DNA of 15,203 nt from Promethearchaeia archaeon (GCA_029856105.1 JAHQWH010000216.1:1-15203); one strand, 5' to 3'; counted from the first letter of the stretch, positions 1,542 to 8,885 are shown. The notes: generated from the sequence alone by a model not told the origin. Translations and numbers: made by a program.

Positions 1542-2579
1542 ATGAAAAAAATTGGGATTTTTGATAGTGGTGTTGACACCCCAGAAGAAATAATTCTTGC
1601 CGCTGGATTTGTCTCTCATAGGCTTTTTGGTGATCCAAATATCGAACCAGATAAAGCTAACGAGCATATCCCTCCAACTCATTGCGTTTGGACTCGAAAC
1701 CTCTTAGAACAAGCAATAAGAGGCCTTGATAAAGACATTGTAGGGATAATTGCGACTCATGGGTGCGATCGAACCAATCGGGAGTTCGATATTTGGTTAA
1801 AGTGTATTAACCTTGATTTCATGTTTTTTTTGAATTCTCCCTTCAAACGCCACAAAATAGCTTCAAAATTTTTTATAGACGATATGAAAGAATTAATAGC
1901 TCAATTAGAAGATAGATTTAGCGTTAAGGTGTCTTCTGAAAAAATCAAAGAAGCAATTAAATTGATGAACAAAGTTAGATCCTTGTTAATGGAGATCTCC
2001 GAATTTCGAAGTAAAATGGTATTGAGAGGAGCAGATTTTCACGCACTCGTCAAAAAAGTTCAACAAATAGATAAAAACGAGGCAGTAAAACTACTTGAAG
2101 CTAAATTGGAAGAGCTAAAAACCAAAAAACCTATAAAAAATAAAGATTATAAAAGAATTCTGTTAACAGGTTCAGATTTAGATGATACGGAATTCATTGA
2201 ATATATCGAAAATCTCGGCTTTCAAATAGTTATCGACGATTTAGGCATAGGTACAAAATATTTTTGGAATAAAGTTGACGAAAATAAGGAGCCCATCGAA
2301 GCCTTAGCCAAATATCATTTAGAAAAACCGATTCATTCGACTAAGTTTCCATCTTATGAGAGATTTGATGTCATTAAAAAATTGGCAGAAAGCTATAAGG
2401 TAGATGGAATTATAAACGTTGCTCATAAGTTTTGCGAACCAGTTTTATACGACCATCCTTATTTAAGCAAAAAATTTAAAGAATTAGCTATACCATATCT
2501 TTTTATTGAAACAGAATATAATAGAGAGTCTTATAAGCAGTTAGCAACAAGATTCGAAGCCTTTGGAGAGATTATTTAA
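1542..2579 (+). CDS. 2-hydroxyacyl-CoA dehydratase / benzoyl-CoA reductase family subunit (HgdB/FldC/BcrC/BzdN-like), [4Fe-4S]
   Basis: PEEIILAAG motif, three spaced Cys (PTHC, HGCD, KFCEP), RILLTGS, IVIDDL, and C-terminal IPYLFIETEY...QLATRFEAFGE, all typical of the HGD-D family. Confidence 0.88.
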   Translation: MKKIGIFDSGVDTPEEIILAAGFVSHRLFGDPNIEPDKANEHIPPTHCVWTRNLLEQAIRGLDKDIVGIIATHGCDRTNREFDIWLKCINLDFMFFLNSPFKRHKIASKFFIDDMKELIAQLEDRFSVKVSSEKIKEAIKLMNKVRSLLMEISEFRSKMVLRGADFHALVKKVQQIDKNEAVKLLEAKLEELKTKKPIKNKDYKRILLTGSDLDDTEFIEYIENLGFQIVIDDLGIGTKYFWNKVDENKEPIEALAKYHLEKPIHSTKFPSYERFDVIKKLAESYKVDGIINVAHKFCEPVLYDHPYLSKKFKELAIPYLFIETEYNRESYKQLATRFEAFGEII

Positions 2580-2595
2580 AGGAGGGATTGAAAAA

Positions 2596-3855
2596 ATGTC
2601 GAAAGAAAAGAAAAGCGGGATAATGTTAAACGCAACCAACAAACTAAAAAATGAAATGGGAAGACATTTTCTAGCAATTGAACAAGCGTATAGAGATGGA
2701 AAACCAACTGCTTGGGCAACTGCAGGAACTCCTGTTGAACTTTTATACGCTATGGATGTTCAGGCAATGATGCCTGAAAATTCAGCAACAATATCAGCAG
2801 CGCTTAAACAATCGAAAAAATTTATTGAAATCGCCGAAGATCAAGGGTATTCCTACGACTTGTGCTCTTATTTCAAAACGAGTATTGGTGCCGTGTCAAG
2901 CAAGGCTGAAATGAGCGTTGGTGGAACTAGAAAACCAGCTTTTATGATGTCAAGCGATGTAATATGTGATACTCACGTTAGATGGTTTCAAATACAAGCA
3001 GAAAGACTAAATGTACCTCATTTCACGTTAGATATACCTCACGTAGTGAGCAACACGAGCAATCGCCAACGCGAGTATTTTAAAAAATATATCAAAGAAC
3101 AACTTTGGGAGCTATTAGATTTTATAACGGAAGTAACAGGTCACGAATATAACGAAGAAAAAGCGAGAGAGGTAGCCTCAAATTCCTATGAATTAGGAAA
3201 AATATGGCAAGATGTGTTTGAGCTAAGAAAAAATGTTCCCAGTCCAATCTCAACGCGAGATACTTTTGGTGGACTTTTTCCATTATTCACAATGCCTGGA
3301 CTTAAATCTCCGATTAAGTTATACAAGAGAATGTACAAGGAAGCAAAAGCGAGGGTAGATGCGGGTGTAGGCGCACTTGAAAACGAAGAATTTAGACTCA
3401 TGTGGGAGGGTATACCTTTTTGGTACAATCTAAAATTCTTTTCGAATCTGGAGCGCTGGAACGCTATGATAGTTTACGAACCTTACGTTTATGCCTTTAG
3501 CAAATATACAAATCCAAATATTACGAAAGACGATGTGTTGAATCATCCAGTAGAATCAATGGCTGAATTAGTTTTAAGTTTTTGGTATATTTATGATCTC
3601 GAGACTCGGGTTAAAAAATTCAAAGAAACAATAAAAGAATGGAAAATTGATGGCGTTCTTTTACATAATAACATGTCTTGTAGACCAAACTCGTGTGGAC
3701 AATACGATTTGAAGCGTAGCTTAATGGAAGAATTAGATATCCCTAGTTTAATAATAACTAGTGACATGAACGACCCAAGAAAACTAAATGAGACTCAAGT
3801 GATTAATCAAATCGAGAGCTTCATCGAAATCTTGCGCCAGAGAAAGAAGCAATAA
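2596..3855 (+). CDS. 2-hydroxyacyl-CoA dehydratase / benzoyl-CoA reductase family subunit (HgdA/FldB/BcrB/BzdO-like), [4Fe-4S]
   Basis: PVELLYAMD, PEN, DLCSY, ICD and SCRP motifs, C-terminal SDMNDPR...IESFIEIL. Start placed at ATG 2596 (not TTG 2563) because GGAGGG at 2581-2586 precedes it and this avoids overlap with the upstream gene. Confidence 0.88.
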   Translation: MSKEKKSGIMLNATNKLKNEMGRHFLAIEQAYRDGKPTAWATAGTPVELLYAMDVQAMMPENSATISAALKQSKKFIEIAEDQGYSYDLCSYFKTSIGAVSSKAEMSVGGTRKPAFMMSSDVICDTHVRWFQIQAERLNVPHFTLDIPHVVSNTSNRQREYFKKYIKEQLWELLDFITEVTGHEYNEEKAREVASNSYELGKIWQDVFELRKNVPSPISTRDTFGGLFPLFTMPGLKSPIKLYKRMYKEAKARVDAGVGALENEEFRLMWEGIPFWYNLKFFSNLERWNAMIVYEPYVYAFSKYTNPNITKDDVLNHPVESMAELVLSFWYIYDLETRVKKFKETIKEWKIDGVLLHNNMSCRPNSCGQYDLKRSLMEELDIPSLIITSDMNDPRKLNETQVINQIESFIEILRQRKKQ

Positions 3856-4055: not shown

Positions 4056-4865
4056 ATGCCAATAATTGGAATTGATTACGATAAATGTATTAGTTGTGAG
4101 ATTTGTATAAGTGCTTGTCCGTCCCAAGTATATTCCAAAAGCAACAAAGCAGATAATAAGATTATATTTGATCCCGAGAAAAAATGCATATTATGTGGGC
4201 AGTGTATTGCACAATGCCCTGAAGATGCTATAATTTACGAAAACATGGGAGAAAGTTTCACTTTCGGCGAAATTGGCGAGCTTTCTTCTCTTGTCCCTTA
4301 TGAAAACATGTTCAAGTTTCTGGCAGGAAATCGTTCAATTCGTAGATATAAGAAAGATAAGGTACCAATAGAAATTTTAAATAAAGTTATTAAGGCGATG
4401 GAATACGCTCCCACAGCAGCTAACATGAGACCTGAAAATTTCGTTTTAATATCTGATTCAGATTTGATTAAAAAGATGTCTGATGCGATTGTAGAAGAAT
4501 TTAGCAAGGATCCCTCGTTAAAGGAGCAATTCAGCAAGCAACTAGAATATCACGCAAAAGAGATGCGAAGCCCTGCATATTTTGACGCCCCTCATGTGAT
4601 AATCGTATCCTCACCTTTCAACATAATAATGGGAGGTTTCAATATTGGAAATATTATTACATACGGGAGATTAGCCGCCCAATCGCTCGGTTTAGGCACT
4701 TGTTGGAATGGTTGGACCCACTTGGCATTCCATAAAAATCCCAAGCTAAAAAAATTAGCCAGAATACGAGGTAGTCTAGTAACTGCATTAATAATTGGTT
4801 ATGCAGACAACAAGTATTATCGCGTTCCTCCTCGTTCAAAAAAGGATGTAAAGATATTTGAGTGA
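4056..4865 (+). CDS. Nitroreductase family flavoprotein with an N-terminal 2x[4Fe-4S] ferredoxin domain
   Basis: CISCEICISACP and CILCGQCIAQCP ferredoxin motifs. Nitroreductase motifs NRSIRRY, APTAAN and AQSLGLGTCWNG. Confidence 0.92.
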   Translation: MPIIGIDYDKCISCEICISACPSQVYSKSNKADNKIIFDPEKKCILCGQCIAQCPEDAIIYENMGESFTFGEIGELSSLVPYENMFKFLAGNRSIRRYKKDKVPIEILNKVIKAMEYAPTAANMRPENFVLISDSDLIKKMSDAIVEEFSKDPSLKEQFSKQLEYHAKEMRSPAYFDAPHVIIVSSPFNIIMGGFNIGNIITYGRLAAQSLGLGTCWNGWTHLAFHKNPKLKKLARIRGSLVTALIIGYADNKYYRVPPRSKKDVKIFE

Positions 4866-4885: not shown

Positions 4886-5230
4886 CTAATTGGAAATTTT
4901 CACACAAGAGTTCGGAGTCAGGATTAAGTATTGGTCCCCAAGACGGGCCATTGAGCCACCATTTTCTCTCAAAAACGATTTTAAATCTTCGATCCCTCTT
5001 TTTAGTTGAGTGACATCAATATTTTGAAGAATATCTTTCGCGTTTAATATTAGAATTCTTTTGCCGAGAAGTTCCTTTTTAATTGCTTCGACTTGCTCAA
5101 GAGAAGAGAAATCGTACTTTTTAATGACAAAACTTTGTTTAAACGAAGAAAACTCTCGGGAAAACCCCATAGTTTCTTCTGGGGAACCTAAAAGTTGATT
5201 TTCTTCCAATTTTTTCCATAATCTACCCAA
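4886..5230 (-). CDS. sepF: Archaeal cell division protein SepF (FtsZ membrane anchor)
   Basis: N-terminal amphipathic MGRLWKKL. Core SLEQVEAIKKEL..KRILILN...LKRGIEDLK...GGSMARLGDQYLILTPNSCVKI matches the archaeal SepF pattern. TTG start, with no in-frame upstream ATG before a TGA. Confidence 0.82.
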   Translation of the reverse strand: MGRLWKKLEENQLLGSPEETMGFSREFSSFKQSFVIKKYDFSSLEQVEAIKKELLGKRILILNAKDILQNIDVTQLKRGIEDLKSFLRENGGSMARLGDQYLILTPNSCVKISN

Positions 5231-5266
5231 TTTTTTACCACGACCAATTTTTTTTAAATCAGTTTT

Positions 5267-5314
5267 ATAAGCTCACTTTAAACATTATGATAATATGAAT
5301 AAGCTCACTTTAAA
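5267..5314. repeat. Perfect 16-bp direct repeat ATAAGCTCACTTTAAA x2 (5267-5282, 5299-5314)
   Basis: Read directly from the sequence. Period 32 bp, in the sepF / DUF35-operon divergent intergenic region. Confidence 0.95.
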
Positions 5315-5390
5315 GAATATATCATTCAGATATTATATTATTTAGATCATTATTTTTTTAAAAATTCTGATTTTTCTGTCTATTAGTAAT

Positions 5391-5403
5391 AAAAGTTTTA
5401 AAA
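5391..5403 (+). promoter_or_regulatory. Putative BRE + TATA box for the DUF35-Ltp4-Ltp3-DUF35 operon
   Basis: AAAAG-TTTTAAAA about 63 nt upstream of ATG 5467. The region is very AT-rich, so alternatives exist. Confidence 0.4.
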
Positions 5404-5466
5404 ATTCATATTCATATTAATAATCATATTAATTGTTATAATAATAATAAAAAAAAAGAAATCAAA

Positions 5467-5928
5467 ATGAGTGAAAATAAAGTAATTGTGGCAAATAAAG
5501 GTATGGTTCGGGCAGATTTTAACTTCTGGGTCGGTCGATACATGGACAAATTTTACGATAATTTTGAAAAAAAGAAAGTAGTTGGCAATAAATGCCAAAA
5601 ATGCGGTGATGTTTTTGTTCCTCCCAGAAAGATATGTGGAAAATGTAATGTAGTTATTCCACTAGAAGAGAATTGGGTTGATTTGCCTGATACGGGTATC
5701 TTAAAGAATTATACCATCACGCCATATAGAGTTAACGATAGAAGTTCAAGAAAGGCTAAACCTCAAATTATTGGTATGGTACAAATTGATGGGAGCAATA
5801 CAGCTATAGTTTATCGATTGTTAAATATAAAACAAGAGGAAGTTAAAACTGGGATGAAGGTTAAAATTGAATGGAGCGAAAAACCGAAAGGAGACCCTTC
5901 AGATATTAAGGGTTTCGTTAAAGTTTGA
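5467..5928 (+). CDS. DUF35 family Zn-ribbon + OB-fold protein (acyl-CoA-binding scaffold, ChsH2 C-terminus-like)
   Basis: GNKCQKCGDVFVPPRKICGKC Zn ribbon, then G.LKNYTI, IGMVQIDG and VKTGMKVKIEW OB-fold pattern. Confidence 0.92.
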   Translation: MSENKVIVANKGMVRADFNFWVGRYMDKFYDNFEKKKVVGNKCQKCGDVFVPPRKICGKCNVVIPLEENWVDLPDTGILKNYTITPYRVNDRSSRKAKPQIIGMVQIDGSNTAIVYRLLNIKQEEVKTGMKVKIEWSEKPKGDPSDIKGFVKV

Positions 5929-5943
5929 GAGGTGAGATGATAA

Positions 5944-7086
5944 GTGGAAAAAGTAGGAATTGTAGGTTATTATCAAGTTCAACTACAGTCAGAAGCTAAT
6001 TATGGTCGATATGAGATGATTTTTGAAGCAGTTAGGGGCGCTTTAGATAAAGGTGGTATAAAAAAGAAGGAAATTACTACGGTCATATCTAGTACTAATG
6101 ATTATTACGACGGAAGAACCATCTCTAATGCGTTTACTGTAGAAGTTGGCGGTGGATATTTAGCTGACGAATCAAAAGTAGAAATGGATGGGGCTCATGC
6201 TGTTTTATATGGTTTAATGAGGATCTTATCCGGGAACCACAAATTAGCGGTAATTTGGGGAGGGAGTATGGCATCTTGCTTTCCTTACCATTCTGCCAGA
6301 TTATTTGAAACGGACCCAACTTGGGAGCGACCTAGTGCTTTGGTAAATGATATCACAGCGGCAGGCTTCCAAATGAGAGCATATATGGAAAAATATGGAG
6401 TTTCTTCAGAAGATATTGCTAAAGTAGCAGTAAATAATAGAAAGAATGCTGCTAAAAACCCTTTGTCTCTAAAAGAAGCTCAATATCCAAATTTGACAAC
6501 GAAGGAAGTTTTAGAATCTGATAATTATGCAGATCCTGTCACTGAACTTATGGTATCTCCTCTTTGTGATGGCGTAGCTGCTTTAATATTAGCTCCAGAA
6601 AAACAAGCTTTGAAGATTACAGACAAACCCGTCTGGATTACTGGAGTAGGATACAATCAAGATGCATATTATCTAGGCGATAGAGATTTATCTACTTCCA
6701 AATCTATGGAAATGGCTGGGAAAGTGGCCTTTAAAGCTGCAGGAATAAATAACCCGAAGGATGAAATAGATGTTGCTGAATTATTTGAAATGTATGCTCA
6801 CGAAGAACTCATTTTTAGTGAAGCTCTCGGATTAACAAAAAAAGGTCAAGGAGCTAATCTAAATTATGAGATTAATGGAGATCTTCCGATTAATCCTTCG
6901 GGAGGAGCTCTGGGAGGTAACGCTCCATGTGCAACAGGTTTAATAAGGATAATAGAAGCAGTTAAGCAATTAAGAGGAGAGGCTAACGGATATCAAGTTA
7001 AAGATGCTAAAAAAGCTATTGCCTCTGGTCAAATTGGAATGTGTGCTCAAAATAATATAATATATGTATTGGAGGGAGAGAATTAA
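5944..7086 (+). CDS. Thiolase-fold (SCP-x type) protein, Ltp4-like, lacking the nucleophilic Cys
   Basis: GTG start 8 nt after GAGGTGA (5929-5935). Thiolase-fold motifs SPLCDGVAALIL, DVAEL and INPSGG. STNDYYDGRTIS...ESKVEMDGAHA...ETDP resembles mycobacterial Ltp4 as I recall it (SSDYLAGRAFS...ESHVEMDAAWA...QTDP). Confidence 0.85.
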   Translation: MEKVGIVGYYQVQLQSEANYGRYEMIFEAVRGALDKGGIKKKEITTVISSTNDYYDGRTISNAFTVEVGGGYLADESKVEMDGAHAVLYGLMRILSGNHKLAVIWGGSMASCFPYHSARLFETDPTWERPSALVNDITAAGFQMRAYMEKYGVSSEDIAKVAVNNRKNAAKNPLSLKEAQYPNLTTKEVLESDNYADPVTELMVSPLCDGVAALILAPEKQALKITDKPVWITGVGYNQDAYYLGDRDLSTSKSMEMAGKVAFKAAGINNPKDEIDVAELFEMYAHEELIFSEALGLTKKGQGANLNYEINGDLPINPSGGALGGNAPCATGLIRIIEAVKQLRGEANGYQVKDAKKAIASGQIGMCAQNNIIYVLEGEN

Positions 7087-7088
7087 AA

Positions 7089-8336
7089 ATGGGAAGACAA
7101 GTAGCTATTGCTTCGGCTGGTTTTAGTGAACATGCTTCAAAACGCTCTGATGTAAGTATGCCGGAACTAGTAAGTGAAGCTATTCTTGATTGTTTAAAGA
7201 ATGTCCCTAGCGTAGGGATTGAAGATATCGATGCTTTTGTGAATGGAAACATGCCCGCATTTGAAGGATCTAATATTCCAGAGCTTTGGATGACGGATTG
7301 GATGGGAGCAAGAAATAAACCATTAATGAGAGTGACTACTGGAGGGACAACGGGAGGATCGGTAGCCATTTCGGGATATTATAATGTAACAGCAGGTATT
7401 CCCGGCGTTGATACTGTTTTAGCAGTAGCTTTTGAACAGCAATCCATAGGCACTACGAGCGTAGGATTAGCAAGCGTAGCATATGGTGAAATATCTGTTC
7501 TTAATTCAATAGGTATTCCTTACGAGGAATTAACGCGTTTGTTATCTGGTGGCGCTGCGATTGGTGTCGCATCATATCAGGCGGCAAATTATATGCGTAG
7601 AAGTAAAATTACTGAAGAAGATTTAGCTAGAGTTGTAGTCCAAAATCGTCATAATGCTGCAAAAACCTGGTGGACACACTTAAAAATGCCAGATCTTACA
7701 ATCGAACAAGTACTAGACACACCTTACATATCTTACCCCTTAAGATACGGTATGGTTTGTCCTGCCTCAGATGGAGCTTGCGCTATGTTGTTTACAACAG
7801 AAGAAAAAGCTAAAGATATGTGTGATATCCCCGTTTATGTAAATGGTGTTGCAAGTGTTTCTCATGAAACAGCTGTTTTAGGATATAACGGAAGTGGTGC
7901 TGGGCAATTAGATCCTTCGGAACAACTAGGTGCTATGAAGTCAGCAGAATTAGCTTTTAATCAGTCTGGAATTTCTTTTCCAAGGAAGGAAATTGATTAT
8001 GCTGAAGTTTATGCCCCATTTCCCAATCAAGAATTAATGTGGGTAGAAAGATTAGGTTTATTTGAAGAAAATACTGCTTCTTCTATGTATGAATCTGGAG
8101 TAACTGCATTAAACGGAGAACTTCCAGTAAATTGCTCTGGTGGAGTGAACTCAACAAATGCTATAGGAGCTTCAGCGATGGAAAGACCAGCCGAAGCAGC
8201 TCTCCAGATTATGGGAAAAGCGAGTAACCAAGTCCCTAAAACTGTTCATACGGCATTAGGCCACGGTTGGGGAGGGGTTATTAATTTAATTACAATGATG
8301 GTGATGTCAGATGAACCTGCTCGTAAATTTAAATAA
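7089..8336 (+). CDS. Thiolase-fold (SCP-x type) protein, Ltp3-like, lacking the nucleophilic Cys
   Basis: KRSDVSMPELVSEAI, FEGSNIPELWMTDWMGARNKPLMRVTTGGTTGGS, CPASDGACA, AEVYAPF, VNCSGG..STNAIGAS and ALGHGWGG closely parallel mycobacterial Ltp3 as I recall it. RBS GGAGGGAG upstream. Confidence 0.88.
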   Translation: MGRQVAIASAGFSEHASKRSDVSMPELVSEAILDCLKNVPSVGIEDIDAFVNGNMPAFEGSNIPELWMTDWMGARNKPLMRVTTGGTTGGSVAISGYYNVTAGIPGVDTVLAVAFEQQSIGTTSVGLASVAYGEISVLNSIGIPYEELTRLLSGGAAIGVASYQAANYMRRSKITEEDLARVVVQNRHNAAKTWWTHLKMPDLTIEQVLDTPYISYPLRYGMVCPASDGACAMLFTTEEKAKDMCDIPVYVNGVASVSHETAVLGYNGSGAGQLDPSEQLGAMKSAELAFNQSGISFPRKEIDYAEVYAPFPNQELMWVERLGLFEENTASSMYESGVTALNGELPVNCSGGVNSTNAIGASAMERPAEAALQIMGKASNQVPKTVHTALGHGWGGVINLITMMVMSDEPARKFK

Positions 8337-8345
8337 TTTTGGAGG

Positions 8346-8885
8346 ATGAAAAAAGTGTCAAAACAAACATTAAGAAAATCTATGGATTATATAAAAAAGG
8401 ATTATATAAAAACTAGAAGAATGCCAGGCAATTGGTATTTGGCGAGTTATACGTTTAAATTTAATATTACTCACATGACTCCCTTTTTAGAGAAATTGAA
8501 ACAGAAGAAATTAGTAGGAAACGAATGTCGGAGTTGCAATAGAGTATTTTTCCCCCCCAGATTAGTATGTGGAAAGTGTATGGTTAAACCTGATAAATGG
8601 ATAGATTTACGCGATACTGCTCGAGTGGCTACCTATACAATTGTATATATCAAAGATCCTGAAACGGGGGAAGTGTTAGAAAAACCAGTAGTTTTAGTTC
8701 GCCAAGACGGTTCTGACACTACTCATATTTCTCAATTAGCACCCAATATAGACTTTAAAGATGCATATATCGGCATGCCACTAAAAGTGCATTGGAAAGA
8801 TGTTACAACTGGTGGATTAAGTGATATTGAATATTACGATGTTTTAGAAGACGATTCAAAGGATATTGAAATAAAAAAAGAATAA
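8346..8885 (+). CDS. Second DUF35 family Zn-ribbon + OB-fold protein
   Basis: GNECRSCNRVFFPPRLVCGKC, VATYTIVY, VLVRQDG and IGMPLKVHW. Starts 9 nt after the Ltp3-like stop. The true start may be a later Met. Confidence 0.9.
   Translation: MKKVSKQTLRKSMDYIKKDYIKTRRMPGNWYLASYTFKFNITHMTPFLEKLKQKKLVGNECRSCNRVFFPPRLVCGKCMVKPDKWIDLRDTARVATYTIVYIKDPETGEVLEKPVVLVRQDGSDTTHISQLAPNIDFKDAYIGMPLKVHWKDVTTGGLSDIEYYDVLEDDSKDIEIKKE

Follow-up and report, generated by a model that had tools for sequence, protein, structure and literature searches.

In Mycobacterium tuberculosis, the genes Rv3521 (conserved hypothetical), Rv3522 (ltp4) and Rv3523 (ltp3) follow one another near fadD19 and echA19 (PMC6429209). 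For sterol side chains branched at C24, there is a genetic requirement for ltp3 and ltp4, which are termed aldol-lyases (Wilbrink 2012, cited in PMC6273163). In two thiolase-fold aldolases, the catalytic base is a Tyr at the first position of the motif equivalent to the thiolase HDCF, i.e., Tyr294 (YDHF) in TcLtp2 and Tyr302 (YDCY) in CtSal; in CtSal a Gly replaces the nucleophilic Cys of thiolases, the equivalent Gly in TcLtp2 is reported to touch the substrate hydroxyl, and the position of TcLtp2 Tyr344 is occupied by Gln352 in CtSal (PMC12329534). Here, we report a four-gene cassette of a Promethearchaeia archaeon (GCA_029856105.1, JAHQWH010000216.1:1-15203; the whole stretch of 15,203 nucleotides is referred to as the window) that encodes two thiolase-fold proteins, A and B, between two separately encoded DUF35 proteins, D1 and D2. 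As judged from sequence, the cassette is a distant archaeal variant of the Ltp4/Ltp3/DUF35 module and not a new kind of system. It probably encodes one complex with retro-aldolase (3-hydroxyacyl-CoA lyase) activity, in which B would be catalytic and A a degenerate partner. Our literature search turned up no publication that deals with this cassette in Asgard archaea.

Loss of the thiolase residues and relation to Ltp4 and Ltp3

A (5944–7086, + strand; 380 aa, GTG start) and B (7089–8336, + strand; 415 aa) both match Thiolase_N and Thiolase_C_1 of Pfam. Residue positions were read from alignments of A and B with SCP2-type thiolases of known structure and with the two Cys-bearing thiolases that the genome itself encodes, both of which retain VHDCF and GHP. 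The nucleophilic-Cys site reads VEMDGA in A, with a deletion of three residues, and TTGGTTGG in B, with a Gly standing at the Cys position. In place of HDCF, A carries FEMY and B carries YAPF, whose Tyr is Tyr308 of EVYAPF, and the His of GHP is replaced by Asn in both proteins, i.e., in GNAP of A and in TNAI of B (Asn357). Because A and B have neither the nucleophilic Cys nor the HDCF Cys nor the GHP His, thiolase action is ruled out; judged from these residues, neither protein can work as a thiolase (EC 2.3.1.9 / 2.3.1.16, SCP2-type). Genes of the A and B types nevertheless carry the annotation acetyl-CoA acetyltransferase, an activity impossible for them. The initial annotation of this DNA had held that the two are not ordinary thiolases, based on the Cys and the His; this is borne out, the motifs it quoted (KVEMDGAHA, RVTTGGTTGG, GNAPCATG and TNAIGASA) are all present exactly as given, and the alignment adds the loss of the HDCF Cys. 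The Cys in NAPCATG of A was considered as a substitute nucleophile and rejected as a family feature: only the close orthologues of A keep it, and elsewhere the position is Thr, Met, Val, Phe or Leu. Within those close orthologues this Cys may have a role.

Labelled references, three of Ltp4 and three of Ltp3, were taken from a plasmid collection (Tsukamurella, Nocardia and Streptomyces). The Ltp2 reference of Nocardia is a gene with 711 bits on NF005892 adjoining ChsH1- and ChsH2-sized open reading frames (ORFs), and it was taken as Ltp2 on this score and position. In the main maximum-likelihood tree (88 sequences, LG+G4; support given as ultrafast bootstrap/SH-aLRT), A and the three Ltp4 references share a well-supported clade of 14 rows (96/97), and the smallest clade that holds B and the three Ltp3 references has 28 rows and moderate support (74/82). 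A quick tree gave a 40-row clade holding B and Ltp3 with an SH-aLRT of 95. Cys-bearing thiolases, Ltp2 and other Cys-less types form a separate 16-row clade (99/98), with A and B outside of it, and the quick trees of 132 and 88 rows agree with the main tree on where A and B belong.

On the curated NCBIfam models, B reaches 361 bits on NF006180 (Ltp3, PRK08313; cut-off 514), which is its best family, the next scoring 178; A reaches 192 bits on NF005924 (Ltp4, PRK07937; cut-off 419), its top family instead being PRK06065 with 216 bits. The Tsukamurella and Nocardia references score 593–596 bits on NF005924 and 734–750 bits on NF006180, exceeding the curated cut-offs. Since their own scores stay under these cut-offs, A and B are to be regarded as distant relatives of Ltp4 and Ltp3, not strict orthologues. 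The match to an Ltp4-then-Ltp3 pair that the initial annotation had proposed is upheld in homology and gene order, and the phylogeny it had called for places A with Ltp4 and, with moderate support, B with Ltp3, both of them apart from the thiolases and Ltp2; strict orthology is not upheld. The motifs agree as well: HVEMD(G/A)A of Ltp4 has its counterpart in KVEMDGA of A, and RVHTAGSVGGS, EIYVPF and SGGVLSxNPIGAS of Ltp3 correspond to RVTTGGTTGGS, EVYAPF and SGGVNSTNAIGAS of B, in which the Ltp3 signature residues (Gly for Cys, E-x-Y-x-P-F and SGGV..N-x-I-G-A) are found.

At the Tsukamurella tyrosinosolvens locus, a crotonase gene and an AMP-ligase gene are followed by genes for a 309-aa double OB-fold protein (tandem DUF35), a 359-aa thiolase-domain protein and a 390-aa thiolase-domain protein; a steroid 3-ketoacyl-CoA thiolase and a P450 are near this triad, and an NMO-family gene also adjoins it. 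The tandem-DUF35/Ltp4/Ltp3 triad is also present in Streptomyces clavuligerus and Nocardia farcinica; at the reference loci it adjoins an acyl-CoA ligase and a crotonase, and its gene order agrees with Rv3521-ltp4-ltp3 of M. tuberculosis. In line with the initial annotation, two DUF35 domains accompany each A/B-type pair, a feature common to the archaeal cassette and the actinobacterial triad. In the window, these domains are D1 (5467–5928, + strand; 153 aa) and D2 (8346–8885, + strand; 179 aa). Each combines an OB fold with a zinc ribbon of four Cys, CQKC...CGKC in D1 and CRSC...CGKC in D2, and D2 is extended at its N-terminus by a basic stretch. Both match zf-ChsH2 and OB_ChsH2_C (DUF35) of Pfam and show the CxxC...CxxC ribbon pattern alike. 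In D1, PF12172 and PF01796 both exceed the cut-off; in D2, PF12172 is above it with 33 bits and PF01796, with 24.6 bits, is slightly under its cut-off of 27.1. Each of the two proteins matches both halves of the tandem DUF35, slightly better the C-terminal half that bears the zinc ribbon. In a DUF35 domain tree, the two actinobacterial halves are sisters (94/92) and D1 and D2 fall in separate unplaced groups.

The nearest non-Asgard relative of B is a protein of an uncultured Actinomycetota (44% identity), which has the two loop insertions of B. These loops (about residues 118–141 and 261–273; window ~7440–7511 and ~7869–7907) are low-confidence segments, are common to the Asgard B orthologues and the Actinomycetota protein, and are absent from B' (a paralogue described below), Ltp3 and thiolases. 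The common loops hint at a gene transfer between the Asgard and Actinomycetota groups and at a distinct substrate lid. On plasmid pLP1 of Rhodococcus qingshengii, a 304-aa "hypothetical protein" (5090–6004) with a very long branch is encoded upstream of a B-like gene; it resembles an A-type partner after strong degeneration and lies in a MaoC/ACAD/CoA-transferase cluster (ACAD, acyl-CoA dehydrogenase).

Residue patterns and the proposed retro-aldolase

AlphaFold2 models of A and B (predicted template-modelling scores, pTM, of 0.87 and 0.83) have the SCP2-thiolase fold. Their structural matches are 6ESQ, 7YVY, 4YZO, BbsB, PhlC, 6OK1 and 9MYR (DUF35-partnered SCP2-type), and among the PDB matches there is no Ltp3- or Ltp4-type structure. 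By alignment, the position of TcLtp2 Tyr344 is that of the GHP His, and it is Asn in B. Throughout the B clade (39 sequences from archaea and bacteria), the Tyr is found in 34 of 39 sequences, the Asn that replaces the His in all 39, and the loop is Gly-rich. In the A clade (35 sequences), the Tyr site varies among Phe, Tyr, Thr, Ser, His and Cys, the His site among Asn, Phe, Asp, His, Cys and Tyr, and the only feature kept there is the Asp-Gly pair of the nucleophile loop. With respect to the catalytic pairs of Ltp2 and Sal (Tyr + Tyr or Tyr + Cys), A retains neither residue and B only the first Tyr. B is also the best conserved of the four cassette proteins, with identities across other genomes of 71–88%, as compared with 61–83% for A, 48–84% for D1 and 50–69% for D2.

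Because the Tyr/Asn/Gly set is kept in the B clade while the same sites are variable in the A clade, we infer that A and B form a heteromer with one working site, located in B, and with A as the structural partner; A would thus be the Ltp4-like, probably non-catalytic subunit, and B the Ltp3-like subunit that probably carries the catalysis. In having one active subunit, such a heteromer would be comparable to the KS/CLF pairs of type II polyketide synthases and, in sterol catabolism, to the heteromeric enzymes ChsE and ChsH. The pattern of a Tyr/Asn/Gly set conserved in the Ltp3-like subunit, against sites that change freely in the Ltp4-like one, provides a concrete testable model for the Ltp3/Ltp4 family.

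The complex we propose would be a heterodimer or a dimer of heterodimers of A and B, flanked by the two zinc-ribbon/OB DUF35 proteins. From a 3-hydroxyacyl-CoA it would release a short acyl-CoA together with a ketone or aldehyde. Such a step is needed where a beta-branch has turned the alcohol into a tertiary one, so that normal beta-oxidation is blocked. In B, Tyr308 would act as the base on the hydroxyl, the backbone of Gly85/86 would replace the lost Cys, and Asn357 would replace the His; A would serve as a degenerate structural partner. D1 and D2 may help to form the cleft for the substrate or serve as docking sites for partner enzymes, as DUF35 domains do in Ltp2, Sal, BbsAB and the archaeal thiolase/HMGCS complex. 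As substrate, a branched acyl-CoA of small or medium size would be likelier than a steroid.

Layout, conservation and neighbours of the cassette

The window is contig C216 of a 3.66-Mb metagenome-assembled genome (MAG), 92% complete, of a Lokiarchaeial organism, and DNA nearly identical to it occurs in metagenomes of marine sediment and subsurface. The four genes lie on the + strand in the order D1-A-B-D2 with gaps of 15 nt (D1-A), 2 nt (A-B) and 9 nt (B-D2), and the ORF calls agree in full with the four co-oriented genes and the spacing reported at the outset. An AT-rich region upstream of D1 (5380–5466, + strand) with a TATA-like TTTTAAAAA is the presumed promoter of the operon. GAGGTGA (5929–5935) precedes the start of A, GGAGGGAG (7071–7078) precedes that of B, and GGAGG (8341–8345) directly abuts that of D2. 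Since sepF, upstream on the opposite strand, closes the preceding transcription unit and an alpha-amylase gene converges on the operon 19 nt downstream of D2, the four genes are a unit of their own. As for transcripts, a sediment cDNA library contains an exact 246-nt chimeric contig inside B with patchy cover of the other genes, and a second library covers D1 and D2 at 93–95% identity and hence comes from a relative; DNA carry-over is possible in both. In a third run, listed with 63% of the sampled words, only tiny pieces matched the window.

Neighbours of the related loci were annotated by Pfam in part and by BLAST to reference proteins in all 16. The survey of synteny across Asgard genomes that had been suggested found an identical cassette order with variable flanks: D1-A-B-D2 is kept in all 16 related Asgard loci, including those where A and B are at 43–48% identity, so the arrangement is not due to chance. 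In the window's own family, 55 of the 68 genomes sampled have a B orthologue (E <= 1e-198); a second family has it in 3 of 19, and none was found in the other sampled Asgard families (e.g., 0/76 and 0/28), so that 2 of 30 families are positive. More distant versions of B with 40–46% identity occur in a few other Asgard families, and B-type proteins are also found in haloarchaea, Dehalococcoidia and Desulfomonilaceae, the haloarchaeal relative being located in a beta-oxidation-like cluster.

Within 10 kb of the cassette, 9 of the 17 loci (the window counted) have an acyl-CoA ligase and 6 of 17 an NMO-type FMN oxidoreductase; ACAD, crotonase and BKACE are each found at 5 of 17. Several genomes carry an ACAD-ligase-crotonase-FAD oxidoreductase operon that is divergent from D1. 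These neighbours fit a predicted lyase step that would follow the activation, dehydrogenation and hydration of an acid. With regard to the FadD19- and EchA19-type neighbours that the initial annotation had proposed to look for, ligase and crotonase genes are thus present in other genomes, but the window lacks a ligase, a crotonase and any sterol gene, and none of the neighbours examined in the 16 related loci was identified as a steroid gene.

A paralogous cassette is present in the same genome on contig C39 (10479–26097), in an island of acyl-CoA metabolism, with the order A'-B'-DUF35-DUF35 (A', 16318–17502; B', 17505–18671; then the two DUF35 genes). Its neighbours are two BKACE genes, an ACAD, a gene for a 473-aa Cys-less thiolase-like protein, two crotonases and an acyl-CoA ligase, and the island also has a phytoene-desaturase-like FAD oxidoreductase and a ferredoxin-reductase-like gene. 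A ligase/crotonase/oxidoreductase operon of this C39 type adjoins the D1-A-B-D2 cassette in other genomes. Many matches of B' showed an in-frame TGA; selenocysteine was considered and rejected, as the match end was the ORF's own stop in the one locus checked, and these codons are read as terminal stops.

The genome contains a second kind of Cys-less thiolase fold, encoded at C155:16992–18215 (- strand), which keeps HDAF and GHP, and at C39:11999–13420 (+ strand), which has HDAF and, at the GHP site, MHA. Both resemble the unexplained ST0096 of Sulfolobus tokodaii (PDB ID: 4YZO). ST0096 is the best sequence match of B, but it was set aside as a model of the pair: it is Cys-less with HD and GHP kept, and resembles the C155 protein and not A or B. 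A further thiolase-like gene at C39:31573–32868 (- strand) is split by an in-frame TAA and adjoins a DUF35 gene (31076–31576); it may be a pseudogene or an assembly error. No HMG-CoA synthase gene lies beside the pair of Cys-bearing thiolase and DUF35 on contig C161. In the window itself, two adjacent HGD-D genes (2-hydroxyacyl-CoA dehydratase D-component type) are located at 1542–3855 and a 2x[4Fe-4S] ferredoxin-nitroreductase fusion at 4056–4865; no activator ATPase gene was seen in the window for the HGD-D pair, and this pair is near the cassette only in the window's own genus and at one other locus.

Alternative explanations and comparison with known systems

We consider a retro-aldolase complex with B as the active subunit the probable explanation, and several points weigh against it. 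In the window's genome and genus, no acyl-CoA genes adjoin the cassette, which lies there between sepF and the amylase gene. A and B are far under the curated NCBIfam cut-offs (192 versus 419 and 361 versus 514 bits). B is without the second catalytic residue of the known aldolases, having Asn for Ltp2 Tyr344 and Pro for Sal Cys304, and no acid catalyst can be named. Finally, the aldolase chemistry draws on Rhodococcus genetics and on the analogy to Ltp2 and Sal, which are members of another clade, and our literature search found no assay of any Ltp3- or Ltp4-type protein. The missing second residue, which neither A nor B has, is also what speaks for a pair with no aldolase in it, i.e., a pseudoenzyme scaffold or an enzyme of another CoA-ester reaction (decarboxylation, hydrolysis or isomerisation). 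For TbSLP, a Cys-less relative, only a very slow (weak) malonyl-CoA decarboxylase activity is reported, and the two other Cys-less thiolase-like proteins of the genome, together with ST0096, indicate that loss of the Cys is common and functionally unexplained. We nevertheless hold this explanation to be unlikely, as B-clade proteins of archaea and bacteria alike retain the Tyr, Asn and Gly and B is 71–88% identical across the cassette-bearing loci, which points to a working active site, and the ltp3/ltp4 genetics point to a C-C cleavage step.

The conservation of B across the cassette-bearing loci would also suit a role in the building direction, either as an Asgard "ketothiolase/DUF35 pair" for fatty-acid synthesis or in an aldol condensation of acetyl-CoA with a ketone or aldehyde, aldol reactions being reversible. 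Asgard genomes have an average of 3.8 such pairs, which was read as a hint of fatty-acid synthesis, and a DUF35-mediated fatty-acid synthase complex was shown in Sulfolobus (bioRxiv 10.1101/2024.07.05.601840). The Claisen condensation of a ketothiolase, however, requires an acyl-enzyme Cys, which both A and B are without; in the loci examined, no ketoacyl reductase or MaoC dehydratase was seen beside the cassette, and ligase, ACAD and crotonase are a degradative set; and a B orthologue in only 2 of 30 sampled Asgard families is a poor fit to a core lipid pathway. Such a building role is thus rather improbable. The branch removal from sterol, hopanoid or isoprenoid side chains that the initial annotation proposed has in its favour the homology of A and B to the sterol-linked Ltp4 and Ltp3, and a phytoene-desaturase-like FAD oxidoreductase, found in the ligase/crotonase operon near the cassette in some genomes and near the paralogous cassette on C39, is compatible with isoprenoid-derived acids. 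However, neither the window nor the examined neighbours of the 16 related loci included any gene identified as acting on a steroid ring or side chain; the neighbours are general acyl-CoA enzymes, the closest non-Asgard relative belongs to a MAG of uncultured Actinomycetota rather than to a sterol cluster, relatives sit in beta-oxidation-like clusters of haloarchaea and others occur in Dehalococcoidia and Desulfomonilaceae, and marine sediment is the source habitat. A link to a named substrate, sterols and hopanoids included, was therefore not borne out, and we regard this origin of the substrate as very improbable.

As for the counting of genes, Cys-less pairs cannot do the Claisen step and should be kept apart in counts of ketothiolase/DUF35 pairs. 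Asgard archaea are the archaea most closely related to eukaryotes, and surveys that take thiolase/DUF35 pairs as evidence of their fatty-acid synthesis may have counted Cys-less pairs as well. More speculatively, and with more doubt than confidence on our side, the cassette could represent a third catalytic type of thiolase-fold aldolase, working with Tyr and Asn and without the second Tyr of Ltp2 or the Cys of Sal, in a complex that is obligately heteromeric, has one inactive subunit and includes two distinct DUF35 proteins. It would then offer anaerobic Asgard archaea an O2- and ATP-independent route past beta-branches, from a tertiary 3-hydroxyacyl-CoA to acetyl-CoA and a ketone or a beta-keto acid, the latter passing to BKACE enzymes, whose genes are often close by. 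If so, a fraction of the Asgard "ketothiolase/DUF35 pairs" would be lyases and not condensing enzymes.

Among known systems, the archaeal true thiolases with a separately encoded DUF35 are the best structural matches (TM 0.81–0.86), but in these the Cys, HDCF and GHP are all there, whereas the cassette has lost all three and pairs two different thiolase-fold subunits. TcLtp2–ChsH2 (PDB ID: 6OK1) and CtSal–Shy (PDB ID: 9MYR) likewise combine an SCP2-thiolase fold with a DUF35 partner. B resembles both in the Tyr at the first position of the HDCF-equivalent motif and in the replaced GHP His, and CtSal also in the Gly for the nucleophilic Cys; however, TcLtp2 and CtSal belong to another clade than A and B and are homodimers with one kind of DUF35, which is a domain of the preceding hydratase. 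The identity of A and B to Ltp4 and Ltp3 themselves is only about 30–40%. A retains a segment of about 25 residues absent from Ltp4 and has a Phe (FEMY) at the position of the Ltp4 His (HAPF), and B has its two extra loops. Unlike the Rv3521-type arrangement, two separate DUF35 genes flank the pair here, both with intact four-Cys ribbons, whereas the N-terminal half of the actinobacterial tandem DUF35 has lost its Cys residues, and the archaeal cassette has no sterol gene context around it. What the cassette has in common with Rv3521-ltp4-ltp3 is the order of an Ltp4-like and then an Ltp3-like gene, the two DUF35 domains beside each pair, and the loss of the nucleophilic Cys, the HDCF Cys and the GHP His in both systems.

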